The position numbers were made by a program, and so were the translations under genes. A stretch of 13,984 nucleotides of DNA from a virus (Duplodnaviria > Heunggongvirae > Uroviricota > Caudoviricetes). A model generated the notes under the pieces. That model worked only from the letters and a program-made list of their open reading frames with translations. It was not told the origin of the DNA and did no database searches. The first letter of the stretch is position 1. Every line of letters starts with the position of its first letter. The stretch covers positions 1-13,984 of the IMG/VR virus record IMGVR_UViG_2703718856_000007; one strand, written 5' to 3'. Of this stretch, positions 1 to 13,984 are shown one piece after another.

Positions 1-1194
1 ATGATCACCGACACAAAGCTCAGGAAGGCGCTCGGCAAGAAAAGAGATGATATCGAGATTATTTCTGATTCGCACGGGCTCAACGCCAGAATCAGCCAGG
101 CCGGAAAAATATCATTTTTCTATCGGTATCGCTGGGCCGGTAAAGCGGTAAAACTCAATGTTGGTGATTATCCTGCAATGAGTATCACCCAGGCAAGAGA
201 GCGTCGCCAACAATTCAGAAACTGGTTAACTGAGGGACTGGATCCGCGAGAGCAGGTGAAGCTGGATAAGCAGACCCGACAGGAAGCGATGTCCGTTGCC
301 GAAGCGTTCAATTACTGGATTGAAAGGCACTGTATCGCTAACGGGCTAGTTAAAGTCGATTACTATCGCCAGGTGTTTGAGAAACATATCGCCGAACCGA
401 TGAAGAATGTCAAAGTCGATAACACAGCGAAAATGCACTGGATCAACGTCTTCGATTCTATAGAAAGCAGGGTGATGGCTCATTACATGCTTTCGCTGTG
501 CAAACGGGCGTTTAGGTTCTGCGTTAACAGAAGTGTGATCGCCTCAAACCCACTCGAGGGATTACTGCCATCTGATGTCGGGCAAAAGCCTAAAAAGAGA
601 ACTCGCAGGATGGACGATGACGATCTGCGCAAAATCTATCAGTGGTTGAAAAGCCATATGTCGATAGAGTCCGTTTTCCTGGTGAAATTTATTATGCTTA
701 CCGGATGCCGTACGGCTGAGATTCGACTTAGTGAGAGATCATGGTTTCGATTGGATGATAATGAGTGGGTCGTGCCTGCGGGCAGTTATAAAACTCGGGT
801 ACATATTAGAAGGGGACTCTCAGACGCCGCCGTTAACCTGGTCAGAAATCACCTCAAGAAAATAAACACCAATCACCTGGTGACTTCACAACGTAAAATT
901 GATGGCGGGATCAAAGATTCGCCCGTTCATTCACCTGTGGCATCCAATTACGCCCGTTCTATTTGGAATGGAACAGGTATGGCAGAGTGGTCGCTTCATG
1001 ATATGAGGCGGACGATAGCCACAAATCTCTCTGAGTTAGGTTGCCCGCCGCACGTAATTGAAAAGCTGCTCGGGCATCAGATGGTGGGGGTTATGGCGCA
1101 TTACAACCTTCATGACTATATCGATGATCAGAAACACTGGCTCCGCGTTTGGCAGAGCCATCTTGAAGAGATCATCGGAGAGCCCTTCAGTTAA
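1..1194 (+). CDS. int: Tyrosine recombinase / phage integrase (P4-type)
   Basis: 397-aa track ORF. N-terminus MITDTKLRK...FFYRYRW resembles the P4-type integrase N-terminal domain; C-terminus has the catalytic box [15 protein letters not shown]...LLGH...AHYNLHDY (H-x-x-R, H, Y) and TGCRTAE (box I Arg). The window starts at its ATG, so the true start could lie upstream. Confidence 0.85.
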
Positions 1195-1388
1195 TTTATC
1201 TTCTTTTTATCCTCCCACTCTTTGATTGACTCAGAGCGCCAGCGGTTAGGGTTGCCGGGCCAGTCAGGGGGTGGGAACGGGCATACGAAGCCCCGAGGCA
1301 TTGTGTCTGCACTTTGCCATGACCAAAGGGTTTTGCGTGAAATTTTGTAGCGACTGGTCAGGTCTGACGTTACCAAAATATCATCCAT
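1191..1388 (-). CDS. xis: Excisionase (lambda Xis-like)
   Basis: Motif TLWSW...[19 protein letters not shown] resembles the lambda Xis RWVRECRIFPPPVKDGREY region as I recall it. The ATG at 1388 (MDDILVTS...) is preceded by GGAGAGAG; the track ORF extends to a TTG at 1433. Stop codon overlaps the int stop, convergently. Confidence 0.6.
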
Positions 1389-1429
1389 AGCTCTCTCCAG
1401 TTGCCCGTTCGGGCCATTCAAAATCTTTT

Positions 1430-1672
1430 TCAACCAACCTGCCCGGGCAGGGAGCGGAGACGGCGCATGCCGGTCATCGCTGTGGCCACGTAGCTCGCCT
1501 TTCGGTTCACCACCTCCACCCAGACTTTCACGCCTTCAACCTTCACCGTATAAGTCTCTTTCATCTTGCTTCGCCCATAGTCGCCATATGTTTGCAAGTG
1601 AGCTGCCAGCGCGATGTCGCATGCTTGGCGAGCTAAAGGTGATTGCTTACTTCCTCGATTGATCAGTCGCAT
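1430..1672 (-). CDS. Hypothetical phage protein
   Basis: 80-aa ORF with a strong SD (AAGGAG, 7 nt before ATG), co-oriented in the recE-recT operon; no family recognised. Confidence 0.5.
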   Translation of the reverse strand: MRLINRGSKQSPLARQACDIALAAHLQTYGDYGRSKMKETYTVKVEGVKVWVEVVNRKASYVATAMTGMRRLRSLPGQVG

Positions 1673-1710
1673 ATAATCTCCTTGAGGGAGGGTTACCCCT
1701 CCCGGTCTCG

Positions 1711-2829
1711 TCAGGCCACGTATTCCGGTTTCATATCCGCCAGGGTGATGCTGAATTGATCGTGCAGTTCATCGCCTAAGTGACGCTTTGAAGATGCAAG
1801 CATGCGCTCGGCTTCAGCGAACCGTTCGGCTGCATGCGGCTCGTCGGGCTGGGGCAGGGATTTAATAGCCTCCTCAACCTTGTTGCGTGCATCCACTAGG
1901 TAATAACGCTTTACGGCTTTGTTTTTCAGCTCGGTGAATAGTGCGGATCCCAGCGTAGCTTTCGCCGTTTCAATGTCGGCACGCAGCGATTTGGCGCTAT
2001 CCACGTCCTGAGCAGATTCGATGCGTTCGCGGAAATCATCGGCAAGAGAGTCGACATTTACCGACGATTCCTGTGCGCTTTGCGTGGTTGTGACGGTGTC
2101 ACCTGAGATATCAGCCAGGCTAACGCGTTGCGGCGTTGGGTTGATCTCTTTTTCTGTGCGCTGTTCAATCTCATCAGGGGTGTACACACCAAGAACAACT
2201 GCAGGGCAATATAGGCGCGCCCAGTATTTGAGTGCCAGATAAGCGATCTGCTGTTTCGGGTTTGATACCCAAAGTGGAGAATTACGTGTGATTACGCTGG
2301 AGAGGAAAACAGGCTCTCCCCAGGTGATATCACTTTCACCGCGAATAACGGCACCTACCCGTACCGACAGTCCTTGTTCATCAGCACTTTCCCAACCGCG
2401 TACCATTTCTTTCTTGTCGTACGTCCCGCCACCTTTCGCAGGCTTTTTAACGGTTATCTCGCGGCTGCTGGCACATTTCGACCAGTCGCCCTCGTACTCA
2501 TAGTGAAAGCGGCCAACGATGGCGTTTGAGCTGGAGATCACCGCATTAACCAGTTGCGCTTCGTATCCCAGGACACCGTTAACCAGGTGCGTCTTTTGCG
2601 CCACGGCGTAAGGGTTCATACCCCACTGCATCGCCTGCATGATGATGGCCATGCAGTCTGCCGGATTGCCGCGGAGGTGCTCAGGCACCGTTACGGCTGC
2701 CTGTGCCATCAACCCGGCGACAGACTGAAGCTGGGTTAAAGCCTGCACGTTGAAAATGGCATTGCTGGCTGAGATCGTGTTTGGAGTCTGCTGTTCAGCG
2801 GTTACGATATTCGTGTTTTCCATCATCAT
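1711..2829 (-). CDS. recT: RecT/Redbeta-family single-strand annealing protein with a long C-terminal extension
   Basis: 372-aa ORF immediately downstream of recE. N-terminal CMAIIMQAMQWGMNPY matches the RecT-type helix pattern (MSFVSAIVQCSQLGLEPG in E. coli RecT, from memory); IAYLALKYWARLYCPAVVLG parallels RecT AIRRLFKYLPVSIEI. Three consecutive ATGs at the start; the first is taken. Confidence 0.65.
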   Translation of the reverse strand: MMMENTNIVTAEQQTPNTISASNAIFNVQALTQLQSVAGLMAQAAVTVPEHLRGNPADCMAIIMQAMQWGMNPYAVAQKTHLVNGVLGYEAQLVNAVISSSNAIVGRFHYEYEGDWSKCASSREITVKKPAKGGGTYDKKEMVRGWESADEQGLSVRVGAVIRGESDITWGEPVFLSSVITRNSPLWVSNPKQQIAYLALKYWARLYCPAVVLGVYTPDEIEQRTEKEINPTPQRVSLADISGDTVTTTQSAQESSVNVDSLADDFRERIESAQDVDSAKSLRADIETAKATLGSALFTELKNKAVKRYYLVDARNKVEEAIKSLPQPDEPHAAERFAEAERMLASSKRHLGDELHDQFSITLADMKPEYVA

Positions 2830-2834
2830 TCCCC

Positions 2835-5800
2835 TTATGCCTGAGTACGCAGCGCTTCAAGGCGGCGCAGGTCGAAGTCGTTCAGTTCGTCGGTGTAGTC
2901 AGCAGTGATTGGCGCTGGCCATTCACCTGTGTCGAATCCGGTTGCGATATTGCGCATCGCTTTGCGGTACTCGAGCATACCCAGCTCCAGTAGTTCAGCG
3001 GATGCCTCGATGATGGCGATCCAGTGGTAGTTCTCGTCTTTGTTGACGAAAATCCAGAAGAACTGATCCAGCGCTGCGGTTTCGCAGTACATAGCCGCGC
3101 TCAGGTGATAATCACGTTCAATAATTTCCCGGTGTAGCCTGGCGCGCAGGCTTTCCTGCTTAACATTCCACATGCTGATGGTTTTCAGGTCTGCACCTAT
3201 ACGCACGCCATCCAGGTCGATCTCAAGGTCAGGGCGCACACGAACTTCCAAGCCCGTCTCCTCGTCAAAACCAAAGTAGCTCACCTCAACGGCTCGGCTA
3301 GGGTGGGTCAGCAGCATGCCGGCGGTCGGGTGTGCCAGAAGCGCTTTTTGAATATTCAGCGCGGTGCTCAGCTGCTGGCGGGTGACCAGCACTTTTCCTT
3401 CCGGGTTATCGCGCCAGGCATCCAGCAGTTCGTCGGCAAATACGGCATCTGGTTTGACTGCCTTCACGGCCTGGATCATGTCTGCTTTGGTACCGGACAC
3501 TTTCAGTGGTGCCGGTTTCTGTGCTTCCTGAGCCACAAGGTCAGGGTTGATGATTGCCAACTGCTCCAGCAGCGCGTCACGGCTGCCGCTGGTTTTAACC
3601 GGCGGCGGCAGGGTGGCGTTGTACTCTTTAATGCATGCCTTCATTGCCGTCGCCGTCTGCTTCTGGTCACCATCAATACGCTGGAAGTCAGCTGGCAGCG
3701 CCATATAGTTCTGTGCCGTTTCTTCCAGGTTAGCGCCAAGCGGAACCTGCGGCGGCAGGGTGGCGTTGTACTCTTCCAGTAACACCTTGATGTTGTCGGC
3801 AGACAGCAGCGCCGGCAGGCTGGCATTGTGCTCATCGATAAAGGCGCGCAGGGTCGCGGCCGTTGTGAATGCGCCTTCAGGGATCACCGGTTCAACGCTG
3901 AATTCTGCGTCCAGTAGTTCAGGCTGCAACGCCAGCGCATGCACCAAGTTGCCCATGTCCAGCACCGCTGAGCGCTCTTTGACGATGGTTTTCTCTACGT
4001 GGCGCGCATTGAAGTACATCAGCGAAACGCGCGCATCTTTCACCTGGGTTGAGCTGATGCCGTTGGCGGCGTGGTAAACCTCGTTTGGCAGCCCTTCATA
4101 GCGGCCTGGCTCGAAATAAGCGGGATAAACAACAGCTGGTTCGTCAGATTGCGCTTCTGGCTCGGTTTGTGCTGCAACTGGTTCGGTTTGGCTTACAGAA
4201 TCGCTATTTTTGGCGACAGAATCCGTATTCTGGTCTACATCGTCCTTCTGGCTGGTATCTGACTCTTCACCAGACTCCAGACTGCTTTCGCCTGGCTGTA
4301 CTTCATCACCAGCTTGTTTTTCATCACTGACAGTTTCTTGAACCTGCACATTGCTGGTGGTCTCCGTAGCCTTTTTCGTGCCATGAGTTGCTGAGTTCTG
4401 CAGCAAAGCCGTAACGTCGAATATTCCGTTGCCGACATTTTTAACCAGTTCTTGTTCGACTTTCTGCGGTTGTGCTGCCGCTTCCTCTGCGCGGCGGCGT
4501 GCTCCTTCTTCACGCACGCGTTGCAGGTTCTCTTCGTGAGTGCAGAAGGATTTGCGCGGAGACTCCTTACCTTCAGGTTGGGGAATTTCCTGTGCTGCGG
4601 GTTCAGTCTCATGCAACGGCAATAACTCGACCGCGGAATTGAACGCGGCTGTCATGGTCTGGTTAACAAATTCCAGGTGAGCGACAGGAGTTAAATGAAT
4701 ATTTTCCGGTGCGATACGTACCAGGTTAAAAATAGCCGTGCGGTTAACACCCAGAACGCCTGGCTGATTGCGCAGGATGTTGCTCCATGATTTCCATGGT
4801 TCTTCTTTTTTGGTCACGATTTCTTTAGCGCGACGAAGAATGCTGCCCGGGATCTCGAAGTGGTTGAAGTCCATAGGCAGAAGGGCACACGCAATCTCTA
4901 AATCGAGAGTGTCCAGTGTGTGGTGTGCGTCAGGTCCACGGTCAGTGACGTAACCGCCGTCGGCATTAGTGCCGGAATCAGTACGCTGCACACTACTGAT
5001 GCGATTACCGGCGGCCCATTCGCGAACGAGGATACCGCGGTCGATGTGATCTGTAGCGAACCACAATTTCAAAAACTGGATTAAGGTTGCGAGTTCAGGG
5101 ATTTTTCCATCGACAGGGAAGACTTTCTTAACGGCATTCACGACTTTATGAATATCGTGCTCAATGGCTTTTTTGAATGCTTCCACATTCTCAGCTGCCA
5201 GCAGCAGGTTCTGGACGTACGCGTCATCGGTGTCCATCTCAAGGCGGACAATCTCATTTTTCTGCCCTGCGTCGATGTGATAGAGATATTCACCATCACC
5301 GATGAACTGAGCCAGTACGCGCTGGCGGAATGGCAGGGTGGCAACAACGATCAGGTTCGGTTGCTGTGTCTGCTGGGATTGCTCTTCGGTATCGACTTCA
5401 CCATCAACGACGCCACCTTCTGCCCGGCCGTTCTCGTCGGTCTGGATACCGTCCTCAACAGTGAGATCTTGACCCGTTGTAACGTCAGCAGCGTTGCTGG
5501 TTTCAGTTTTGAGCAACTGCAACTTACCACTGCGCCAGTCTTCTACCAGTTGATTGCGGTCACCGGCATCGGTGTTCACCCAGTCAGACATGAATGCAGC
5601 GATCAATCTTGGTTCGTGCTCTTCGTCTGGTGTGAAAATGTCCTTAACCGCCCGAATCATTTTCCACTCAGCATTCAGGCTGAGTTTGGCGGTCGCGGGC
5701 ACATCGTTCCTTGCCACAAGCAGGCTATGGAGATATGTATTGCCTTCATCCAGTGACATTTCGCTGGCAGCCAACTGCTGCTCTTTAGTGACGTGGGTTT

Positions 5801-6224
5801 GGTATTTATCGTTCATCAGATGGACGGCAAAGCGGACCGCTGGAGTACGGTTTTCAACCGGGACAATTTCGGACGCAGTCGCATCTTCAACGATTACGGT
5901 CGGAGTAGGTGTGTAGGGGGCGTCAACGGAACCAGTAGACACACCAGCGGCTTTTGGCAGCCAGGTGCGCCCATCGTCCTGAAGCTCGTAGCGATCACAC
6001 CAGGTAAAATCAACTTCACCTTCTTTCGGCAGGCCGTCGACAACTGGGAAATCAGTGCGAATCGGTTTGGCGTAGTCCTTACCCCGACCTGTTTCGATAC
6101 CTGCATCTTCCAGCGCAACATCCAGCATCAGATTGGCGCGAGCCTCGGTTTTAGCAGTGAACCAGACCACTGCATCTTGCTTTCCGGATTTCTGAGTGGC
6201 TTTAACCACATTAAAGAATTCCAT
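2835..6224 (-). CDS. recE: Exonuclease VIII (RecE-like), large 1129-aa form
   Basis: N-terminal DFPVVDGLPKEGEVDFTWCDRYEL and REWAAGNRISSVQRTDSGTNADGGYVTDRG closely parallel E. coli Rac RecE motifs (NFPVVNDLPAEGEIDFTW..., [30 protein letters not shown]) as recalled. C-terminal nuclease-like region ends ...GEWP. RBS GAGGAT upstream of the ATG at 6224. Confidence 0.85.
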   Translation of the reverse strand: MEFFNVVKATQKSGKQDAVVWFTAKTEARANLMLDVALEDAGIETGRGKDYAKPIRTDFPVVDGLPKEGEVDFTWCDRYELQDDGRTWLPKAAGVSTGSVDAPYTPTPTVIVEDATASEIVPVENRTPAVRFAVHLMNDKYQTHVTKEQQLAASEMSLDEGNTYLHSLLVARNDVPATAKLSLNAEWKMIRAVKDIFTPDEEHEPRLIAAFMSDWVNTDAGDRNQLVEDWRSGKLQLLKTETSNAADVTTGQDLTVEDGIQTDENGRAEGGVVDGEVDTEEQSQQTQQPNLIVVATLPFRQRVLAQFIGDGEYLYHIDAGQKNEIVRLEMDTDDAYVQNLLLAAENVEAFKKAIEHDIHKVVNAVKKVFPVDGKIPELATLIQFLKLWFATDHIDRGILVREWAAGNRISSVQRTDSGTNADGGYVTDRGPDAHHTLDTLDLEIACALLPMDFNHFEIPGSILRRAKEIVTKKEEPWKSWSNILRNQPGVLGVNRTAIFNLVRIAPENIHLTPVAHLEFVNQTMTAAFNSAVELLPLHETEPAAQEIPQPEGKESPRKSFCTHEENLQRVREEGARRRAEEAAAQPQKVEQELVKNVGNGIFDVTALLQNSATHGTKKATETTSNVQVQETVSDEKQAGDEVQPGESSLESGEESDTSQKDDVDQNTDSVAKNSDSVSQTEPVAAQTEPEAQSDEPAVVYPAYFEPGRYEGLPNEVYHAANGISSTQVKDARVSLMYFNARHVEKTIVKERSAVLDMGNLVHALALQPELLDAEFSVEPVIPEGAFTTAATLRAFIDEHNASLPALLSADNIKVLLEEYNATLPPQVPLGANLEETAQNYMALPADFQRIDGDQKQTATAMKACIKEYNATLPPPVKTSGSRDALLEQLAIINPDLVAQEAQKPAPLKVSGTKADMIQAVKAVKPDAVFADELLDAWRDNPEGKVLVTRQQLSTALNIQKALLAHPTAGMLLTHPSRAVEVSYFGFDEETGLEVRVRPDLEIDLDGVRIGADLKTISMWNVKQESLRARLHREIIERDYHLSAAMYCETAALDQFFWIFVNKDENYHWIAIIEASAELLELGMLEYRKAMRNIATGFDTGEWPAPITADYTDELNDFDLRRLEALRTQA
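3604..3837. repeat. Internal 147-bp-period direct repeats within recE
   Basis: 26-bp identical segments at ~3604-3629 and ~3751-3776 (cggcggcagggtggcgttgtactctt), plus a degenerate third copy at ~3811-3837. On the minus strand they encode three EYNATLPP/EHNASLPA motifs spaced 49 codons apart. Confidence 0.6.
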
Positions 6225-6363
6225 GTGAGATCCTCATTTTTGGGTGTTAGAATCCCCGGACCATTGATAGCGCCCATTGGGTTAACTTTGGTTTTAATGT
6301 TGTTTCCGGTGTAACTTTGGTCGGTACCACCAGACGTAGATCCCGCCTTGCGCGGGTTTTACG

Positions 6364-6525
6364 TTAGCCTTCGTGAGCCATCTGGTCGTGCGAAGCGCAA
6401 CGTTTGGAGCAATACTCTTTTTCTTTGCGCGCCAGCTGTGAGCCGTTGCGATAGAGAAGGGTGCTCTTGATTACTTCCTCCGTTTTAACCGGCTTGCCGC
6501 AATATCCGCATTTCTTGTCTAACAT
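6364..6525 (-). CDS. Small zinc-ribbon-like protein (53 aa; CxxC...CxxxC), not in ORF track
   Basis: Manual translation: MLDKKCGYCGKPVKTEEVIKSTLLYRNGSQLARKEKEYCSKRCASHDQMAHEG. Strong SD GGAGGA 4-5 nt upstream of the ATG. Sits between the upstream small gene (stop 6537) and recE, co-oriented. Confidence 0.5.
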   Translation of the reverse strand: MLDKKCGYCGKPVKTEEVIKSTLLYRNGSQLARKEKEYCSKRCASHDQMAHEG

Positions 6526-6536
6526 GACATCCTCCG

Positions 6537-6743
6537 CTAGTGGCTGAGTCCATGCCCCAACCCGTTCAGATAAACTTCAACCAGCAAGTCGGTTGTGTAA
6601 GTCCGCTCAATCCCACGATGCAGATACAGGCGGCCGCGTTTATTTGCTGATGCTGTCCAGGTGCTTTCCCGATGCTTAACGAGCATCCCTGGGAGAACGG
6701 CGCCGCGGTTAACAGTCTGTGTCCCGTAATGATGACTAACCAT
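6537..6743 (-). CDS. Hypothetical small protein (about 68 aa)
   Basis: Track ORF 6537..6803 trimmed to the internal ATG at 6743 (MVSHHYGTQ...), which has a G-rich SD-like stretch and overlaps the stop of the upstream ORF (ATGGTTAG), suggesting translational coupling. Weak. Confidence 0.3.
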   Translation of the reverse strand: MVSHHYGTQTVNRGAVLPGMLVKHRESTWTASANKRGRLYLHRGIERTYTTDLLVEVYLNGLGHGLSH

Positions 6744-6924
6744 TGAACACCCCCGTGAAATGCATAATTTCGACAGCCAGGCCAGCCCAGAAAACCACAC
6801 CAATGGCCAGCGCGATAACCAGTGAGCGAATGCCGTTTCTGCTCATACCGCACCCCAGCACTGAACGCTTACGAATGCGACCAAAGCCAACAACAGAGCC
6901 ACCTTCACCTTGAATCTGTTCCAC
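6736..6924 (-). CDS. Hypothetical small membrane protein, first gene of the leftward operon
   Basis: 62-aa track ORF with a GTG start and GAGG about 7 nt upstream. Contains one hydrophobic segment (LVIALAIGVVFWAGLAVEI). An internal ATG at ~6846 would give a 36-aa version. Weak. Confidence 0.3.
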   Translation of the reverse strand: MEQIQGEGGSVVGFGRIRKRSVLGCGMSRNGIRSLVIALAIGVVFWAGLAVEIMHFTGVFNG

Positions 6925-7021
6925 GCAGGAACCTCATGTTCGCGGATCATCTCTTCACCTTTGCCTTATCGCGGCTAACGGGACGTTTTGACTTCACCCC
7001 GGCGTTGCCGGTGTTGTTTGG

Positions 7022-7110
7022 ATGAGATGATAATAGCAATGAGTATTAACCATAGCAATACGTATTGTTATTATTTGATAGCTATTGCTATTAAATCATT
7101 GATAGCTAAA
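7022..7110 (-). promoter_or_regulatory. OL/PL-like early-left promoter with repressor operator repeats
   Basis: AT-rich region with repeated TAGCAAT/ATTGCTA half-sites, including the perfect 12-bp palindrome CAATACGTATTG (~7054-7065). Minus-strand -35 TTGCTA (7053-7058), 17-bp spacer, -10 TATTAT (7030-7035). The same hexamers and operator motifs recur at the cI-cro intergenic region. Confidence 0.45.
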
Positions 7111-7170
7111 TGAATTTATTTTTTCCTATTGTGCTGTTATGCTCAAAAAAACGCCAAAAAGGGTAGCGCC

Positions 7171-7374
7171 ATGTCGAATGAGGATGAGTTTTTCGCAGAG
7201 ATGCACCCGCAGATTGCGCAGGTCATCGGGATAGCGGTTATGCAGCTGCTGGTTGAGAGGCGCGAGCCATCAAGAGAGGCGCTGATAGAGATGATTCAGG
7301 TGCTGTGGCAGGGTGACCAGGTAGATCTGGCAGTAGAGCTGGCACTGGATGTGCTGATGCTGAGGGAAGAGTAG
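7171..7374 (+). CDS. Small acidic hypothetical protein (67 aa)
   Basis: MSNEDEFFAEMHPQIAQVIGIAVMQLLVERREPSREALIEMIQVLWQGDQVDLAVELALDVLMLREE. GC-rich codon third positions typical of host-adapted coding sequence; AAGGG about 8 nt before the ATG. The track's TTG start at 7129 is less likely. Confidence 0.55.
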   Translation: MSNEDEFFAEMHPQIAQVIGIAVMQLLVERREPSREALIEMIQVLWQGDQVDLAVELALDVLMLREE

Positions 7375-7383
7375 GGCAGTAAC

Positions 7384-7405
7384 AACCCGGCGCGGTGGCC
7401 GGGTT
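7384..7405. terminator. Stem-loop between convergent genes (8-bp perfect stem AACCCGGC / GCCGGGTT, 6-nt loop)
   Basis: Seen directly in sequence. Lies between the stop of the 7171..7374 ORF (+) and the stop of the 7414..8331 ORF (-). No U-tract on either strand, so function as an intrinsic terminator is uncertain. Confidence 0.3.
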
Positions 7406-7413
7406 AACGTCTA

Positions 7414-8331
7414 CTACCAGTTCGGTAGCTCACGCAAAGAATACTTAGGCTTTCCATTACCTACCTGAGTGCAGAGGAATTTTGCAATAACTTTTTCTCC
7501 GCGGTGATCGTTGATAATGTCTGGATTGTCTATGTAATTACTGATTTTCGCTACAAAAATTGATTTAGATTCATCATGCTCCATAATAAACTCGCATTGA
7601 CGTTTATGAGGAAGAGCTCCCAAGAAGCTAACTTCTAATAACTGCAAATCTTCTTTAACACTATCTTTACTTAGCTTGAGGACCGCTCTTTCAATATCAT
7701 TGATATTGTTTGCAACAAGCGCTTGGTTGTTATGCCTTAAAGTAAAAGTTGCTTTGTTATCAAATAGTATTTGTATAAATCCACGTATTTTATCTAAAGC
7801 TCGGTCATCCAAATCACTAATCGCCTCAGCTAGACCATCATCGTCTCCCCTTATACTCATTTGCAGGATAGATTGAGTCTGGTTCAGAGCTTTTTGAACA
7901 GAAGATTCCTCATCAAAGTTAAGCGGGGCATCTGGCCTAAATTCCTCAAGTGTAAATCCAAAAGAACCTTTGGCTGTTCCAGTAATCATAAGCAAATTAT
8001 TTTCAAGATTTGGAATTTTACCTTTGGCCGGTAATTTCCCTGAAAATGAAGATGCAACATGAGAAACCGCATCATTAAAGGCGTTAACTATTTTGGTTCC
8101 GAAATTTGCAGCTATGCCATATGTACCAAGTACAGGGGCTCCTCTGAATGTTAAAGTGGCTTTAACTGGCGGATGCTCATCGATAACAATATGAGAAATC
8201 TCATCATTTAGCTCATGGAGCCTGCTTTCAAGGCTCATTTTGCCAATAATGTCATCATCAGTAGTGGTTTCTAAAAGAGACAGGATTGAGTCCCGCTCAC
8301 TTAGAACGAACAAGTAATCGTCGCGATTCAT
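7414..8331 (-). CDS. Hypothetical protein B of AT-rich cassette (305 aa), unknown family
   Basis: Long track ORF in a low-GC segment; start ATG overlaps the stop of upstream gene A by 4 nt (ATGA). Hydrophilic, no transmembrane segment, no Walker motif; no family recognised. Confidence 0.75.
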   Translation of the reverse strand: MNRDDYLFVLSERDSILSLLETTTDDDIIGKMSLESRLHELNDEISHIVIDEHPPVKATLTFRGAPVLGTYGIAANFGTKIVNAFNDAVSHVASSFSGKLPAKGKIPNLENNLLMITGTAKGSFGFTLEEFRPDAPLNFDEESSVQKALNQTQSILQMSIRGDDDGLAEAISDLDDRALDKIRGFIQILFDNKATFTLRHNNQALVANNINDIERAVLKLSKDSVKEDLQLLEVSFLGALPHKRQCEFIMEHDESKSIFVAKISNYIDNPDIINDHRGEKVIAKFLCTQVGNGKPKYSLRELPNW

Positions 8332-8915
8332 TGCTCACCTCCTTCTGATAGCATTGTTTCTAAAATGGTTAATGCCTGTTGATCCAGTGTAATATCTAGA
8401 GGAATCTGCAAGAATCCCTTCCATGTAAGATCCCTTCTATGAGACCACATACTGTACCAATATACAGTCCTTTCTACAAGCTGCTCCTTAGAAACGCCCA
8501 GTGACTGGAAGTAAGAATCAACTCTAAACTCTTGCTTTCTCCACTTACCCATATGTGGCACAAACAGATTCGGGTTACGCATAACGACATCTTGCTGCGT
8601 TTCGTTAAACGCCAAATTAAAAAAAGTCACAACATCAATGTCATTTGGCGGACGTTTTTCAATGAGTTCAACATCTTCTATGAAACTACCATCGATCCAT
8701 TGAAAACCATCCGTTAACCCAGTTTTATTAATTTCTTTACGAAATTTGATGAAACCGAGTAAGATCTCGATCCTTTGTGGGCTTGTAGCGTACCGCTCTA
8801 CAAATTTTAATATATCTGTCTTATATGGGGAGCGATAGGCGCTGGTTGGATGCTCCATATCCATTGGTGGGATTACACCAATTTCATTCCAGTTAGGAAT
8901 TTCCTGAATCACCAT
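8328..8915 (-). CDS. Hypothetical protein A of AT-rich cassette (195 aa), possible minimal nucleotidyltransferase-like motif
   Basis: Track ORF with AAGG about 8 nt before the ATG. Candidate own promoter on the minus strand: -35 TTGAAA (8963-8968), 17-bp spacer, -10 TACAAC (8940-8945). Motif WIDGSF-x14-DIDVV is reminiscent of the GS...DxD nucleotidyltransferase signature, though the spacing is atypical. Confidence 0.75.
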   Translation of the reverse strand: MVIQEIPNWNEIGVIPPMDMEHPTSAYRSPYKTDILKFVERYATSPQRIEILLGFIKFRKEINKTGLTDGFQWIDGSFIEDVELIEKRPPNDIDVVTFFNLAFNETQQDVVMRNPNLFVPHMGKWRKQEFRVDSYFQSLGVSKEQLVERTVYWYSMWSHRRDLTWKGFLQIPLDITLDQQALTILETMLSEGGEQ

Positions 8916-9187
8916 GCTGTGGCCTTAAATTTCTTATTGGTTGTAAGAAAAAATGTCATTATTTTCAATGGAGTCATTGATTTTTTTATCGCTTTATCAA
9001 TATGACTTCTCTCGCTCGCTTAATCAGAGCCTTTCTCTGAAATTTCATCAGGGATCGCATAAAATTATTGTTTGCCTCATTCACTGCGCGAGCGAAGCCT
9101 TTCCTTCATTTACTTCTCGTACATGTTATCTAGCCTTCCGCCTGAGTCGTAAATATACAATCATTCCCTGTTGTTTTAGGTGGCTTC

Positions 9188-9217
9188 TTATCCATGCTTC
9201 CTGTACGTCTTCGGCAT
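9188..9217 (-). repeat. Duplicated remnant of the cI 3' end (encodes MPKTYRKHG-stop)
   Basis: 9192-9217 matches 9395-9420 (the real cI terminus, MPQTYRKHG-stop) at 25 of 26 bp, with the stop codon conserved at the same offset; direct repeat 203 bp apart. Confidence 0.5.
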
Positions 9218-9248
9218 TACCAAAAACACATCGAACTACCGGTCTGGC

Positions 9249-9368
9249 TCACTCAAAGTCATCCCGCTCATCCTTCCGCTTGAAGAAAACTTTATCCAGC
9301 CTGAGCACTATCCCAACCAGTCCGATAATCAGCAAAGTAATGAGTATTGGGATAATCAGATCAGACAT
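9249..9368 (-). CDS. Small membrane peptide (39 aa), not in ORF track
   Basis: Manual translation: MSDLIIPILITLLIIGLVGIVLRLDKVFFKRKDERDDFE, an N-terminal hydrophobic helix followed by a charged tail. SD GAGGAAG just upstream of the ATG at 9368. An in-frame ATG at 9398 overlapping the cI stop would give 49 aa. Lies 23 bp downstream of cI, co-oriented. Confidence 0.4.
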   Translation of the reverse strand: MSDLIIPILITLLIIGLVGIVLRLDKVFFKRKDERDDFE

Positions 9369-9390
9369 GCTTCCTCTGCGTGCTAAGGCT

Positions 9391-10089
9391 TTACCCATGC
9401 TTCCTGTACGTCTGCGGCATGCTGCCGATCACCTTGCCGAACACGAAAACACGATTCATTTCGTCTTTCTCGATCGGGTCCCAGGCTGCATAGCTCTTGT
9501 TATCTGAGATAACCAGCAGCTTGTCCTTCATCTTCTGCAGGCGCTTGACGTGAGCAGTGTCGTCGTACAGGAAGGCGTATATCCCGTCGCCGTCGAAGCT
9601 CTTAACGCTGATGTCGACGAACAGCAGATCACCCGGCTCAATCGTGCCGGACATGCTGTCACCCCGGACGTTGATGATCCGGATGTTCTCAGCCTTACGC
9701 CCATCGAACATGTGCCGGGCTTCAGCTGGCTCATACTCAACAGAACGGAGAATCTCGACGAACTCCTGGTTCACGATGCCCGGCCCGGCACTAACCATAA
9801 GGTCCAGCACATCAATCCTGAATGCATCAGTATCCTGGCTTTTAACCTGGGCAGCGCGAGGGAGCTGGCCGTCATCGCGCATCGGTCCATTTCCGGTTGA
9901 TAACCATTCAGACCTGACGCCCAAAGCATTAGCTATCTCGACAATTTTTGTTGAACCCCTGGCGTTTCCACTCACCAGGCGCCAAATGGTTGGCTGAGCA
10001 ATACCTGAGGCCTTCGCAAGCGCCCCTTGTGACATTCCAGCCGAAGCCATGGCCTCGTTTAAACGATCTGCAAGAGTTTCTTTTTTCAT
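9391..10089 (-). CDS. cI: Phage repressor cI-like (HTH plus S24 LexA-type peptidase domain)
   Basis: N-terminal HTH (MSQGALAKASGIAQPTIWRLVSGN); C-terminal S24 autoprotease motifs (GDSM serine, HVKRL lysine; Ala-Gly site in MVSAGPG). Start taken at ATG 10089 (MKKETLADR...), with the candidate PRM -10 immediately upstream, i.e. near-leaderless like lambda cI; the track's 10152 start would overlap the operators. Confidence 0.9.
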   Translation of the reverse strand: MKKETLADRLNEAMASAGMSQGALAKASGIAQPTIWRLVSGNARGSTKIVEIANALGVRSEWLSTGNGPMRDDGQLPRAAQVKSQDTDAFRIDVLDLMVSAGPGIVNQEFVEILRSVEYEPAEARHMFDGRKAENIRIINVRGDSMSGTIEPGDLLFVDISVKSFDGDGIYAFLYDDTAHVKRLQKMKDKLLVISDNKSYAAWDPIEKDEMNRVFVFGKVIGSMPQTYRKHG

Positions 10090-10094
10090 AATCT

Positions 10095-10170
10095 CAAATT
10101 TATACGCTTGCGTATTACTGGTCAAAACACGTTTTGCTATTGCTAAAACCAATACGCATTGCTATTATCA
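10095..10170. promoter_or_regulatory. OR-like divergent promoter/operator region (PRM leftward, PR rightward)
   Basis: PR candidate on plus strand: -35 TTGCTA (10140-10145), 17-bp spacer, -10 TATTAT (10163-10168). PRM candidate on minus strand: -35 TTGACC (10120-10125), -10 TATAAA (10099-10104). Inverted repeats TACGCttGCGTA and CAATACGCATTGCTATT share half-sites with the 7022-7110 region. Confidence 0.5.
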
Positions 10171-10200
10171 TTTTGCACCAATACTTATAGGAATTGGAAC

Positions 10201-10428
10201 ATGACGAACAAAACCATCCAGAAGGCAATTGATATCGCTGGCAGTCAGAAAAAATTGGCCGATCTGTGTGGCGTAGCGCAGCCGACAGTTTGGCGCTGGC
10301 TGCATGGCGGCGGAATTGACGCTCGCTATGTAATGAAAATCGTGTCTGCGACCAACGGCAAGATTAAGGCGGCAGAGATCAGGCCTGACCTTGCTCAGTT
10401 GCTGAGCGCGCATTCACCGGCCGCCTAA
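10201..10428 (+). CDS. cro: Cro-like HTH transcriptional regulator
   Basis: Small ORF divergent from cI with HTH QKKLADLCGVAQPTVWRW. Start taken at ATG 10201 with AGGA about 9 nt upstream; the track's 10159 start lies inside the promoter. Confidence 0.75.
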   Translation: MTNKTIQKAIDIAGSQKKLADLCGVAQPTVWRWLHGGGIDARYVMKIVSATNGKIKAAEIRPDLAQLLSAHSPAA

Positions 10429-10468
10429 CCAGCGGCCATTCCAAACAACACCAGAGGAAGTATCACAA

Positions 10469-10690
10469 ATGGAGAGTTCAACGACACGCAACAAAGTGGA
10501 GGCTCGCAGGATAGAAAGCTGGTTACACAGCCAGATAGCTGAACTGGGAACCACGAATATCGCCAAAGTGGCCGGAGTGAATAAGTCGACGGTGAGTCGC
10601 TGGCGGGAAAGTCTGCTGCCGAACATGTCGCTGCTGCTGGCCATCCTGATTTCTAACAGGCCGGGAGAGAAAGGTGATTTTGAAGCATGA
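10469..10690 (+). CDS. cII: cII-like transcriptional activator
   Basis: RNKVEARRIESWLHSQIAELGTTNIAKVAGVNKSTVSRWRESLLPNMSLLLAIL parallels lambda cII (RNEALRIESALLNKIAMLGTEKTAEAVGVDKSQISRWKRDWIPKFSMLLAVL, from memory). SD AGAGGAAG upstream. Confidence 0.8.
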   Translation: MESSTTRNKVEARRIESWLHSQIAELGTTNIAKVAGVNKSTVSRWRESLLPNMSLLLAILISNRPGEKGDFEA

Positions 10691-10775
10691 GTGGGAACAG
10701 AAAGGCGAAAGCCGCAGTGCAGCAACACTAACGGCTTTCTACGCGAATTAACTGGATCAATTCACAGGAGTAATT

Positions 10776-11630
10776 ATGGCAAATACTGCCGAGGTAATCA
10801 ATTTCCCTGTGCCTGTCGTGGCACTACAGGAGCTGCGCGTGGCAGATCTCGACGATGGGTTTACGCGCATCGCCAATGAGCTCCTTGAAGCTGTCATGCG
10901 TGCGGGTCTGTCGCAGCATCAGCTTTTGGTGTTCATGGCTGTCATGCGCAAAACATACGGCTTCAACAAGAAATCTGACTGGGTCAGTAACGAGCAGCTC
11001 TCGGAGCTGACCGGCATTCTCCCGCATAAGTGCTCAGCTGCAAAAAGCGTCCTGGTTAAGCGGGGGATATTAACTCAAACCGGTCGTGTTATCGGGATTA
11101 ATAAAACGGTCAGCGAATGGTCATCTTTACCCGTAAAAGGTAAAGAAAAAAAACCTTACCTGAAAAAGGTAACATTACCCGAATCAGGTAAGAAAAGTTT
11201 ACCCGAATCAGGTAACGCCTATTACCCGAATCAGGTAAACACAAAAGACAAACATACAAAAGACAATAAAGACAATATTAATAACCCCCCTAAATCCCCC
11301 CGGGCGGTTTCGTTCGATGCGTTAGCTGTTCAGTTGCCTGACTGGCTTTCTGCAGAAATCTGGTCGTCATGGGTGGCATATCGTCGCGACCTGAAAAAGC
11401 CGATCAAGTCTCAGCAGACGGTCACCCAGGCTATCAACCTGCTGGACCGCTGCAGACTGAACGGTTACGCGCCCGAAGAAATTATCAACCGCAGCATCGC
11501 CAATGGCTGGCAAGGCCTGTTTGAGCCAAATGGTGCCAAGCCTCAACCAAGTCAACAGGTGCGAGTTGCCGAAAATTTCGCAGGGAAGGATTACGGGCAG
11601 ACTGAAATCCCATCATGGGCGAGGGACTGA
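10776..11630 (+). CDS. O: Replication initiation protein O-like
   Basis: N-terminal VADLDDGFTRIANELLEA...MRKTYGFNKK...NEQLSELTGILPHKCSAAKSVLVKRG...INKTVSEW parallels lambda O (VADLDDGYARLSNMLLEA...LRKTYGWNKP...). Iterons are embedded mid-gene, as in ori-lambda. Confidence 0.85.
   Translation: MANTAEVINFPVPVVALQELRVADLDDGFTRIANELLEAVMRAGLSQHQLLVFMAVMRKTYGFNKKSDWVSNEQLSELTGILPHKCSAAKSVLVKRGILTQTGRVIGINKTVSEWSSLPVKGKEKKPYLKKVTLPESGKKSLPESGNAYYPNQVNTKDKHTKDNKDNINNPPKSPRAVSFDALAVQLPDWLSAEIWSSWVAYRRDLKKPIKSQQTVTQAINLLDRCRLNGYAPEEIINRSIANGWQGLFEPNGAKPQPSQQVRVAENFAGKDYGQTEIPSWARD
11127..11285. repeat. Origin of replication: five 17-bp iterons (TTACC-N7-GGTAA) followed by an AT-rich tract
   Basis: Iterons at ~11127, 11156, 11175, 11199 and 11222; three are identical (TTACCCGAATCAGGTAA). 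An A-rich unwinding-like tract follows at 11239-11285 (acaaaagacaaacatacaaaagacaataaagacaatattaataa). Confidence 0.6.
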
Positions 11631-11632
11631 TC

Positions 11633-12484
11633 ATGGAACTGGAAGAAAAAATCACTGCCATTGAGCGGATGCTTGATCAGCTGAGTAAGCCACCGGAAGA
11701 CATCCCGAATTGCGAGGTGGTTATCGAGCGCGTCTGTTGTGAAAAGCATGGCGAGTATGAGCAGCGCAAGCGGATCCTGACCAGCAGCATCATCAATCTG
11801 CCATCACCGCCGACACGCTGCCCGGGCTGCCTGGAAGACGAACTGAATTTTCTGAAGGATGAAAAGGTTCGCTGGGATAAGCGAGTTCGCCAGCAAACTG
11901 CAGAAAGGCTGCTTCGCCAGCTGGATATACCAGAGCGATTCTCCACGTGCACTCTGGACAGCTACAAGCCTGTTGGGAAGGATTCTGAGCGAGCATTACG
12001 GGTCTGCCAGGCCTACGCATCGAAATGGACTGATCGCCTCCAGCAGGGAGGTGGGTTGGTTATGTGTGGCAAGCCTGGTACCGGTAAAAACCACCTTGCG
12101 CTGGCCATTGCCCGCCATGTGATTGAGCACCACCAAAGCTCAGTCATTTTCACGACGGCGCTCAAGATTGCCCGGGAGTTTAAATCGACCTGGTCAAAAA
12201 CAGCCACGCGCACTGAGGATGAGGTGATCAGCTACTTCACGAAGCCAGACCTTCTGATTGTCGATGAGGTTGGTGTGCAGTTTGGCAGCGAAGCCGAGAA
12301 GATGATCATGTTTGAAATCATCAACACCCGCTACGAGCGCCTGAAGCCGACGATCCTGATCAGCAACCTGCCGAAGGATGAGCTGACGCAGTTTATCGGC
12401 GAGCGCGTCATCGACCGCATGAACGACGGCGGAGGCTGCACGATTTCGTTTACCTGGGACAGCTATCGGGAGAACAGGTCATGA
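11633..12484 (+). CDS. dnaC: DnaC-like helicase loader (IstB-like AAA+ ATPase)
   Basis: Walker A GKPGTGKNHLALAIA and Walker B LLIVDEVG; sits in the P-equivalent position after O. Start taken at ATG 11633 (MELEEK...) with GAGGGA upstream; the track's 11615 start overlaps the O 3' end. Confidence 0.85.
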   Translation: MELEEKITAIERMLDQLSKPPEDIPNCEVVIERVCCEKHGEYEQRKRILTSSIINLPSPPTRCPGCLEDELNFLKDEKVRWDKRVRQQTAERLLRQLDIPERFSTCTLDSYKPVGKDSERALRVCQAYASKWTDRLQQGGGLVMCGKPGTGKNHLALAIARHVIEHHQSSVIFTTALKIAREFKSTWSKTATRTEDEVISYFTKPDLLIVDEVGVQFGSEAEKMIMFEIINTRYERLKPTILISNLPKDELTQFIGERVIDRMNDGGGCTISFTWDSYRENRS

Positions 12485-12774
12485 CAGGCAAAGACGCAAT
12501 TCTGAACTACCTGAAAACGCATAAAACCTGTAGCTCTCCAGATGTCGCCGCGGCTTCCGGGATGACGCATACCTGCATCAACCAGGCTGCAAATATCCTG
12601 GCAAAGCAAGGGGTGCTGGTAGCTGAAGCTCGGGTGTGGCGGACGGTTTACTACCGGCTGGCTACTGAAGAAGAAATTTCAGGCAGGAAGAGCACCAATC
12701 AGATTTTCAACGAGTGTCGGCAAAGCCCGGCGATGAAACGGGTACTGGCTGTTTACGGGAGAACATCAGCATGA
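12481..12774 (+). CDS. Hypothetical protein, Ren-like by position and size
   Basis: 97-aa ORF overlapping the dnaC-like stop by 4 nt (ATGA), as lambda ren overlaps P; size matches Ren (~96 aa). I cannot verify sequence identity from memory. Confidence 0.5.
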   Translation: MTGKDAILNYLKTHKTCSSPDVAAASGMTHTCINQAANILAKQGVLVAEARVWRTVYYRLATEEEISGRKSTNQIFNECRQSPAMKRVLAVYGRTSA

Positions 12775-13211
12775 CTATCACACTACAGGCAGTAAACGAG
12801 CTCATCGCCACCCTGGAGAGCGCAGGCGAGCTGTCGATCAGAGAGCAGAAGTTCCTGAAGCTGGCGAAAGCGTACCAGCAGCTGGCTGCGGAGAATGTGG
12901 AGGCAAAAAAAATAATCAGCGAATGCCGGGAGTATTTCATCGCTGGGGTGATGAACCGTATCAGACCAACGAATGAAGGATACCTGCATATGATTTGCGA
13001 CACGTTTGCAGACGAAACCCCAGCAACCGATCGCATCGTAGCCGGGATTAAGGCTGATGGGGTGGATGAGTTCGTATCCAACGCCGTGCATAAGATTTTT
13101 GATGAAAGCGGAGCAGTGTCAGCTTTGGCTTACCTTTCGCTCGCTAATTCATACGTGAAGCAACTGCGCGAGGGGGCGACAAATGACCAAGTCAACCATA
13201 ACCAGAGATGA
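12771..13211 (+). CDS. Hypothetical nin-region protein (146 aa)
   Basis: Start ATG 12771 (MTITLQAVNEL...) overlaps the upstream stop (ATGA), with GGGAGA about 9 nt upstream; the track's 12714 start is less likely. No family recognised. Confidence 0.5.
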   Translation: MTITLQAVNELIATLESAGELSIREQKFLKLAKAYQQLAAENVEAKKIISECREYFIAGVMNRIRPTNEGYLHMICDTFADETPATDRIVAGIKADGVDEFVSNAVHKIFDESGAVSALAYLSLANSYVKQLREGATNDQVNHNQR

Positions 13212-13752
13212 GCTTAACGAAGTGATTGCCACATACGGAAAGCACCACATTGCTCATCGAATGGCTAATGTATTGTTGGCCGCAATGGACAGCGAGCCAG
13301 ATTGCAAGGAAAGAAAACTTTTCTGTTCAACCGATACGACCAGAATGAGAAAGACAATCTCTGTCTCTGCTGGGACCGAGGATGCGCCGCTATATCGCCA
13401 CGCGCAGCAGCCGGTAAATAGCGAGCCAGTAGGATACCTTTTCCATAACGAATACGGTGTGGTTTTATACTCAATTTCCGATGATGCTACCGAGGGATTC
13501 TCGCTAATTGGGCCAATATACTCCGTACCGCAGCCAGCGCCGGTAGTGCCTGGTAAATGGATTCCGGTAAGCGAGCAGATGCCGGAAGACCGCACGCAGG
13601 TAATTCTATGGGATGCTGAAATTGGAGAAGTAACAAGCGGTCACTACAGCCATAAAACACATACTTTTTATCATTGCGGCGATGCCATCGAAAACGAGAT
13701 AACCCACTGGATGCCGACGCCAGCAGCTCCGCAGGAGATGAAAGGTGAATAA
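13183..13752 (+). CDS. DUF551-like phage protein
   Basis: C-terminal GKWIPVSEQMPEDRTQVILWD...GHYS...ITHWMPTPAAP resembles the DUF551 signature common in lambdoid nin regions (recalled). GAGGGGG about 7 nt before the ATG. Confidence 0.6.
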   Translation: MTKSTITRDELNEVIATYGKHHIAHRMANVLLAAMDSEPDCKERKLFCSTDTTRMRKTISVSAGTEDAPLYRHAQQPVNSEPVGYLFHNEYGVVLYSISDDATEGFSLIGPIYSVPQPAPVVPGKWIPVSEQMPEDRTQVILWDAEIGEVTSGHYSHKTHTFYHCGDAIENEITHWMPTPAAPQEMKGE

Positions 13753-13984
13753 AGCCGAACTATTGCAGAAGATATCAGCGCTCGCTACTGAATGCCACAC
13801 GCTGGCCTGTGATCTTGATATTGGTGATGAGCGAACCGAAATGTTCGAAATCTACGGCGTGCTGCACAATCTCGGTCGCCGCGGGTACGCCTGCCAGGTA
13901 GGGCGGCGCATGAATCCACTGCTCGCATCCTGCGATGACGACGAGGATGAGGAAGATGACGATTGGGATGAGGATGACGACTGA
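13745..13984 (+). CDS. Hypothetical protein with poly-acidic C-terminal tail
   Basis: 79-aa track ORF with GTG start overlapping the upstream stop; ends ...CDDDEDEEDDDWDEDDD-stop at the window edge. Confidence 0.45.
   Translation: MNKAELLQKISALATECHTLACDLDIGDERTEMFEIYGVLHNLGRRGYACQVGRRMNPLLASCDDDEDEEDDDWDEDDD

Follow-up and report, generated by a model that had tools for sequence, protein, structure and literature searches.

Lambdoid phages carry genes between the repressor gene cI and the promoter PL that are expressed in the lysogen, as is the case for rexAB in lambda and nun in HK022. It is also accepted that these phages exchange modules via short conserved flanking sequences (PMC2327257). 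We analysed a region of this kind in the Caudoviricetes record IMGVR_UViG_2703718856_000007 (13,984 nucleotides, the whole of which is called the window below), where the last 30 nucleotides (nt) of a cI gene, here named element E, are found a second time behind a small gene encoding a putative membrane peptide. With a probability of roughly 0.82, we consider this repeat to be a recombination joint where small accessory modules swap between related phages.

The locus most resembles the linker sequences of lambdoid phages, a concept cited in PMC2327257. As in the linkers, a short sequence common to many phages occupies the same map position and homology ends abruptly at it, and here too a given cargo can accompany different repressors, and a given repressor different cargo. 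It differs from them in that the linker is formed by the last nine repressor codons and is not intergenic, and in that a second copy within one cassette leaves the module flanked on both sides by direct repeats. Like rexAB and nun, the peptide gene lies downstream of cI, on the same strand and upstream of OL/PL, but the peptide sequence resembles neither Rex nor Nun nor the described exclusion proteins. It also recalls the morons of HK97 and HK022, being an extra AT-rich gene between genes that are adjacent in relatives; unlike a strict moron, it has no predicted promoter or terminator of its own and appears to ride on the repressor transcript. Finally, type I toxins (Fst/Ldr-like) share with the peptide its size, a hydrophobic helix with Pro and Gly, a charged C-terminal tail and repeated motifs near the ribosome-binding site, whereas the peptide shows neither a family match nor antisense RNA signals and is co-oriented directly downstream of cI.

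The case is one of clean, ordinary phage mosaicism, a new instance of a known phenomenon, and leaves the current understanding of phage mosaicism unchanged. It provides an unusually clean, countable example of reshuffling in the lysogen-expressed slot next to the repressor, the joint being a 30-nt coding terminus, and one small cassette can be traced through about 20 cargo contexts, two repressor alleles and both Klebsiella and E. coli.

The terminus of cI is repeated beyond a small gene

The left and right copies of E are called E_L and E_R, and E' denotes a weaker third copy. The features of the locus are as follows, L followed by a number designating loci used for comparison throughout the text.

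9391 to 10089, minus strand: cI-type repressor gene, 232 amino acids, ending in VIGSMPQTYRKHG and the stop; Pfam HTH_3, Phage_CI_repr and Peptidase_S24
9391 to 9420, minus strand: E_R, the last nine cI codons and the TAA stop, with AGGAAG and then ATG (9398 to 9396)
9369 to 9390, minus strand: leader of 22 nt from the cI stop to the peptide ATG, carrying the Shine-Dalgarno (SD) sequence of the peptide gene; together with 9361 to 9368 it forms E'
9249 to 9368, minus strand: small-peptide gene, 39 amino acids, MSDLIIPILITLLIIGLVGIVLRLDKVFFKRKDERDDFE, with one transmembrane helix and a charged C-terminal tail
9218 to 9248, minus strand: 3' tail of 31 nt, from the peptide stop to E_L
9188 to 9217, minus strand: E_L, non-coding here, the border between the cassette and the DUF6932 module

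A repeat finder reported 9188–9217 and 9391–9420 as a 30-nt direct repeat in which 28 of 30 positions (93%) are identical, the mismatches being 9191 versus 9394 (T/C) and 9210 versus 9413 (T/G). Both copies open with TTA (9188–9190 and 9391–9393), which is the minus-strand TAA stop at an equal offset. An earlier note on this DNA, made from the letters of the stretch, had described a match of 25 out of 26 bases between 9192–9217 and 9395–9420 with the stop at the same offset, and this was confirmed. When up to three mismatches were allowed, the 26-mer had these two sites only in the window, and it was matched in none of 200 dinucleotide-preserving shuffles. The only symmetry of E is the 5-bp (base pair) CATGC...GCATG.

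The repressor gene truly ends in the right copy, and the RefSeq coding sequence in the identical region of E. coli W21 has the same cI coordinates. The protein has the build of an S24 phage repressor, with an N-terminal helix-turn-helix (HTH) domain that resembles that of the 434 repressor and a C-terminal Peptidase_S24 domain, and its gene diverges from cro across an operator region. The Peptidase_S24 match stops at residue 221, and the last 11 residues of cI form a tail past the domain. E corresponds to the last nine codons and the stop (MPQTYRKHG-stop) of a widespread family of such repressors. Within E_R, an SD-like AGGAAG sits 3 nt before an ATG that is itself 5 nt upstream of the stop.

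The weaker third copy, to which the same note had ascribed the SD and the ATG of the peptide gene, was also recovered. E' (9361–9390) directly abuts the right copy, shows 19 of 30 identities to E without gaps and holds the exact 10-mer CATGCTTCCT at 9366–9375 (AGGAAGCATG on the minus strand), whose ATG (9368–9366) is the start of the 39-codon open reading frame (ORF) 9249–9368. We assign E' to the peptide gene, as its own ribosome-binding site and no scar of the event that made the 30-nt repeat, because GCAGAGGAAGC-ATG is found ahead of the peptide ORF whichever of the three upstream architectures is present; it is kept in 13 loci and in a Citrobacter genome where the ORF lies at least 50 nt from the repressor stop. 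Read in the cI frame, E' gives SLSTQRKHV-stop as compared with SMPQTYRKHG-stop for E, and a far more ancient origin from a repressor terminus is possible, the resemblance outside SD and ATG being too weak to decide. The ATG inside E_L opens a 21-codon ORF (MDKKPPKTTGNDCIFTTQAEG, 9130–9195, minus strand) that is probably not a gene, because equivalent ORFs differ in every flank context.

Relatives with and without the cassette

We then looked at the loci of related phages. BLAST comparisons with phages and E. coli genomes showed breaks of homology at 9189, 9217 and 9390/9391: phage RAH1 is 97.9% identical to the window from 9189 rightwards, and on the left side, as far as 9217, E. coli prophages carrying DUF6932 show 99.4% identity. 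The breakpoints at 9189 and 9217 fall exactly on E_L, which is therefore the border between a peptide-plus-cI module and the cargo module at 7414–8915.

The left flanks of E form 46 clusters, and about 20 of these, in Klebsiella and E. coli prophages, were found to adjoin the cassette. Both a cassette-bearing and a single-E state are known for about nine flank families, eight of which were tabulated. The flank of the window itself accompanies the cassette in the window, in E. coli W21 and in the IMG/VR locus L010, and a single E without any peptide gene in E. coli NRZ96606 and SUISSEKPC3NDM5 and in the IMG/VR locus L088 (alignment of the window, L001 and L010 against L002, L003 and L088); in the cassette-free relatives this single E directly follows the 272-nt DUF6932 leader. 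Further single-copy loci are L155 and L007. Klebsiella phage 6 LV-2017, whose cI is 98.6% identical, contains a single E, and its homology to the window breaks off precisely at the stop of cI. In Klebsiella phage ST101-KPC2phi6.1, cI is separated by the cassette from genes annotated as rexA and rexB. The cassette occurs with two different repressor alleles, the second one being that of E. coli XYEH3314 and others, and one cargo flank occurs with different repressors. The locus thus combines abrupt homology breaks, one map position with unrelated flanks, and presence or absence of the cassette with single-E empty sites, as a mosaic junction does. On this distribution the cassette is an old, recurrent unit that was not inserted in this genome.

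Markers within E_L allowed the joint to be placed more precisely. Across the two-state families, the first 5 nt of the distal copy of E (the stop and two bases) track the flank family, and those of E_L, TTATC, match the single-copy relatives that have the flank of the window. The T at 9210, on the other hand, was found in E_L copies of the cassette and in no tabulated single copy (eight families); it was met once elsewhere, in L072. E_L is of the flank type on its left (TTATC) and of the cassette type on its right (T at 9210), and the joint therefore lies between 9192 and 9210. L072 (E at 8100, minus strand) has a single E, and its cI ends with the E_L-type T, which gives MPKTYRKHG. Its flank is also seen with the cassette (L049), and a deletion between E_L and E_R would give exactly such a locus; L072 may be a product of cassette excision.

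E is confined to repressor ends and to the cassette

The survey of E consisted of a pattern scan of IMG/VR (120 loci), GenBank phages, E. coli genomes and 21 species-level genomes, and it yielded 159 evaluable copies, with at most two mismatches each, in more than 150 loci. Of these copies, 103 form the in-frame 3' end of a long repressor ORF, and 39 are located just after the peptide gene, in the E_L position. Fifteen were found 2–12 nt past the stop of three other repressor allele families, which end in ETKLRLV, MFWSSMLW and AYKRFG, and two were unclear. None of the 159 evaluable copies was at a position unrelated to a repressor end or to the distal end of the cassette.

The stops of the three allele families differ, with a TGA inside GTGATCGGCA, a stop overlapping TGGTAATG and a TAA replacing the Lys of FGKVIGS, and these repressors appear to have lost their C-terminal tail through independent events, namely a frameshift, an insertion and a nonsense change. 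Their 3' ends, with E after the stop, can be seen at L002:3289-3330, L127 (E at 5399), L148 and L149.

Since E itself was the search pattern, the loci selected in this way are unfit to judge its nucleotide conservation, which would be circular. We thus used two protein-based samples independent of E, namely 21 cI homologues from different species, found with peptide patterns outside E, and 80 homologues of the allele-2 repressor. MPQTYRKHG was intact in all but two of the 21 cI homologues (L146 and L154 have MPQAYRKHG), and the codons of E varied among them; an Enterobacter clade, with ACA TAC AGA AAA CAC GGT, keeps MPQTYRKHG and has lost both the SD-like AGGAAG and the ATG. As for the allele-2 homologues, E lies downstream only in the closest group, with 0–5 mismatches, and some copies are clearly decayed. 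An absolute nucleotide conservation of E was rejected, as the protein-based samples show codon drift. These comparisons argue that E is conserved as protein in the main family and drifts elsewhere; they gave no evidence for an independent nucleotide-level function of E, which has no detectable role of this sort.

A second linker-like conserved flank (…CCAGTGGCCTGATGAGGTGTTTGGGTGA) was noticed after E, ahead of different cargo, at L134:2197-2235, in L147 and in more than 20 IMG/VR loci. This flank contains CTGATGAG and a chain of overlapping mini-ORFs. A hammerhead ribozyme motif was considered for it and discarded, Rfam giving no hammerhead or other match.

The cassette carries a conserved gene for a membrane peptide

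The cassette, which recurs with hardly any change, is 203 bp long and consists of E_L (30 nt), the 31-nt tail, the 39-codon ORF and the 22-nt leader. The tail accompanies the cassette in every context that has E_L. The possibility that it is a relic of the 3' end of another repressor was rejected, since local alignment was no better than with shuffled sequence.

The peptide ORF is intact at 60 of 63 loci, which represent 29 nucleotide alleles. Its variable sites are distributed 9/5/25 over the three codon positions and the ratio of nonsynonymous to synonymous polymorphism (pN/pS) is 0.13, a pattern that argues firmly for a real gene under purifying selection. The G+C content of the extra gene is 43–46%, versus 54% for cI. 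The mean hydropathy of the peptide is 3.1 over residues 4–22, and a charged tail comes next. Translation would use the SD and ATG of the gene itself and yield a single-pass inner-membrane protein. A 49-amino-acid form starting at the ATG of E_R (9398) is possible only in the commonest upstream architecture, and the 39-amino-acid form is therefore the conserved product. Among 22 cassette haplotypes, the leader varies at 2 of its 22 positions, and the first 12 peptide codons together with most of the leader (9334–9390) are invariant, third positions included; beyond these 12 codons, synonymous variation is free.

All homologues of the peptide are annotated as 'hypothetical protein' and come from Klebsiella pneumoniae, K. 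aerogenes or E. coli. The peptide matched no Pfam, NCBIfam or PADLOC family; a single weak match (E ~0.03) was to a PHROG of unknown function, and a literature search found no report of a small membrane protein encoded behind cI in these phages. The cassette is present in 10 of 5,426 complete E. coli genomes, and in 8 of these 10 no feature is annotated under the match, so that the RefSeq annotation of E. coli (PGAP) mostly leaves a conserved 39-amino-acid membrane peptide unannotated.

A consensus scan revealed neither a promoter nor a terminator of the cassette's own within 9188–9390. In Klebsiella phage 2 LV-2017 (L009:2540-2600), which has no E_L, a canonical hairpin-plus-T terminator (CCGGCCACCGCGCCGGATTTTT) lies behind the peptide gene. 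This terminator is absent from the E_L-bearing cassette, which may therefore permit read-through into the downstream cargo.

RNA folding of 9150–9440 was not significant on either strand (z = +0.45 and +0.47), and Rfam gave no credible match in window positions 6900–10300 or in four related loci. A local 12-bp hairpin between the tail and E_L was dismissed, as it contains five G-U pairs, has z = -0.6 and is weakened in natural variants. We also noted an 11-nt perfect inverted complement of the core of E (CGTACAGGAAG), at 9564–9574 with respect to 9400–9410 and 9197–9207, through which the cI mRNA at 9564–9574 could pair with the SD-like part of E. Such a long-range pairing was discarded too, the codons at 9564–9574 being no more conserved than their neighbours in 69 alleles.

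Origin and spread of the repeat

The earlier note had proposed a mosaic junction, and the empty sites, the breakpoints on E_L and the confinement of E to repressor ends and the cassette all support it. E_L is indeed, as that note had it, the boundary with an accessory region that continues into 7414–8915, with BLAST breaks at 9189 and 9217. Its expectations about relatives also held: cassette-lacking relatives with the same flank (E. coli NRZ96606, SUISSEKPC3NDM5 and L088) have a single E and no peptide gene, the same-cI relative Klebsiella phage 6 LV-2017 has one copy and homology that ends at the cI stop, and no repeat lies at unrelated positions among the 159 evaluable copies. As to a segment inserted or recombined at the cI 3' end, recombination at a joint is upheld but an insertion in this genome is not, the cassette being an old unit known from at least 20 flank contexts. 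The term moron applies insofar as an extra gene of deviant composition lies between otherwise adjacent genes; a promoter and terminator of its own were not found.

We propose the following course of events. Homology between these Klebsiella and E. coli lambdoid prophages ends right after the repressor stop because unrelated cargo modules follow beyond it. The cassette would have had a single origin, in the joining of a peptide gene that followed one repressor to DNA bearing the repressor terminus of another phage, and this founding event would have been an illegitimate joint of two phages, both with a repressor ending in E; the repeat would thus be present because the repressor genes of the two recombining partners had identical final 30 bases. 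Later spread and loss would have taken place via homologous crossovers in E. The two copies of E would act as short portable homologies, a crossover adding the cassette, removing it or placing it by new cargo, and catalysis could be provided by the RecE/RecT proteins of the window, a Red system or the host RecA. Red- and RecET-type enzymes recombine short or diverged sequences. The window would itself be a recombinant, in which DUF6932 cargo from a single-E lineage was joined inside E_L to a cassette-plus-cI module of the Klebsiella-phage type.

Several points weigh against recombination at E as the whole explanation. As to the founding event that created E_L, the similarity between the tail and the 3' end of another repressor is not above chance, with the exception of a shared TGGTA just before E. 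A length of 30 bp is short for efficient homologous recombination, and within a single flank family gain is indistinguishable from loss. Variable positions make up 12 of 80 sites in the non-coding parts of the cassette as compared with 16 of 39 synonymous sites (Fisher p = 0.003), and this low variation, together with the invariant first 12 codons, means that a pure scar model is insufficient. Transcription from PRM through the cassette is deduced only from gene order and from the lack of a predicted terminator.

Among the alternatives, the one that survives best is that E is kept twice as a nucleotide 'port', the AGGAAG and ATG at the repressor stop serving to couple translation or to protect transcription of the cargo, in which case E_L would be selected and would be no scar. 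An SD-like AGGAAG and an ATG do lie at the repressor stop, the ribosome-binding site and ATG of the peptide gene are the same 10-mer, and the frame that starts at the ATG of E_R runs on into the peptide. Codon usage agrees with such a port, the codons before E varying synonymously with E invariant among divergent E. coli and Klebsiella alleles (in loci selected by the E pattern) and the Arg229 codon being the rare AGG or AGA in 19 of 21 species, and so does the lower variability of non-coding cassette positions relative to synonymous sites. However, in the E-independent sample the codons of E drift and the Enterobacter clade is devoid of the SD and the ATG, and the non-coding copies downstream of the allele-2 repressor, with 0–5 mismatches, are in part decayed. 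Moreover, the ORFs opened by the ATG of E differ in every flank (4–21 codons), the DUF6932 start is 215 nt past the end of the 21-codon ORF opened by E_L, and there is no significant RNA structure. We consider such a port unlikely, and we give equally little credit to a more general form of it, a homology-based docking port for lysogen-expressed cargo where single-strand-annealing recombinases of phages would swap E-flanked cassettes behind cI, the port would also give translational coupling to the repressor and E' would be a fossil port.

A founding duplication made locally, by a tandem or unequal-crossover copy of the cI terminus in one lineage with the peptide gene arising or being captured between the copies, would explain why E' abuts E_R, and the likeness of SLSTQRKHV-stop to SMPQTYRKHG-stop suggests a repeated layering of repressor termini. 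But E' stays with the peptide gene even where the latter is at least 50 nt from the repressor end, the TGGTA before E_L fits a different repressor allele (SSMLW-stop, L127) and not this cI (GGCAGC), and the 173 bp between the copies resemble nothing left of E_L in the window. We find this origin rather improbable.

The cassette might also be a type I toxin-antitoxin module of the par/Fst type, in which the repeated 10–30-nt element would be the site where an antisense RNA pairs with the toxin ribosome-binding site; direct repeats are indeed RNA-RNA pairing sites in the par locus of pAD1. A 39-amino-acid peptide with a charged tail and a single Pro- and Gly-containing transmembrane helix would suit such a toxin, three copies of an SD-plus-ATG motif are present within 233 bp, and the 5' third of the ORF and the leader are invariant. 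Nevertheless, no plus-strand promoter or terminator is predicted inside the cassette, where any antisense promoter would have to lie because the DNA left of E_L differs between loci. There is no Rfam match and no Pfam or NCBIfam toxin family even at E = 10, and the gene is 22 nt downstream of cI on the same strand, so that constant expression is expected in lysogens. A toxin-antitoxin module is very unlikely on these grounds.

A target-site duplication or att-like site of a transposable or site-specific element carrying the peptide gene, which direct repeats flanking a short insert present or absent at the same site might bring to mind, is scarcely credible, since 30 bp far exceeds known target-site duplications (2–14 bp), the insert ends have no terminal inverted repeats, the cassette has no recombinase gene and the 'target' never varies, being a sequence that forms a coding terminus in cassette-free phages.

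Cargo and transcription of the slot downstream of cI

To the left of the cassette lie the following features.

8916 to 9187, minus strand: leader of the DUF6932 module, 272 nt; the flank common to cassette-free relatives, 99.4% identical
7414 to 8915, minus strand: two-gene cargo between cI and PL, encoding a DUF6932 protein (8328 to 8915) and a 305-amino-acid partner (7414 to 8331)
about 7030 to 7095: OL/PL region, the left limit of the immunity-region cargo slot, with operator and promoter words common to OR/PR (10136 to 10171)

The two cargo genes overlap by 4 nt (stop/start), match PHROGs 9194 and 18731 and have a G+C content of 39–40%, versus 50% for the window. The DUF6932 protein matches Pfam DUF6932 (6e-29) and the PADLOC defence candidate PDC-M63A (3e-11); a literature search found nothing on DUF6932. 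The promoter-like site at 7058–7030 (minus strand) has hexamers identical to those of the PR-like site.

The cassette and the DUF6932 pair occupy the rex position. Since the peptide gene and the pair are located between cI and PL and no terminator is predicted in between, they most likely share the PRM/PRE transcript of cI in the lysogen. The peptide would act at the inner membrane of the lysogen, and its position and composition make a lysogen-expressed exclusion or conversion factor our best guess. It adjoins a candidate defence pair in a slot that usually houses exclusion and defence genes, which makes it a sensible candidate for phenotypic testing.

The prophage around the locus

The window is a segment of a lambdoid, Rac-like prophage, with the following genes outside the region described above.

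1 to 1194: integrase
1711 to 2829: RecT (profile match)
2835 to 6224: RecE-like exonuclease (profile match)
10201 to 10428: cro, with cII and replication genes further right

Positions 1–6743, the int-recET arm, are ~97–98% identical to coliphages HK225 and mEp237, and the immunity and replication region (6900–13984) is matched at 92–98% by Klebsiella phages, a pattern that marks the prophage as a cross-genus mosaic. E. coli W21 is identical to the window over 8900–10100. An enterobacterial-type cI, 80% identical to that of the window, was also encountered in a metagenome-assembled genome labelled Parachlamydiaceae (L142, contig JBKEAL010000003.1); this contig is very short (1,652 bp), and the gene is probably there through binning contamination.

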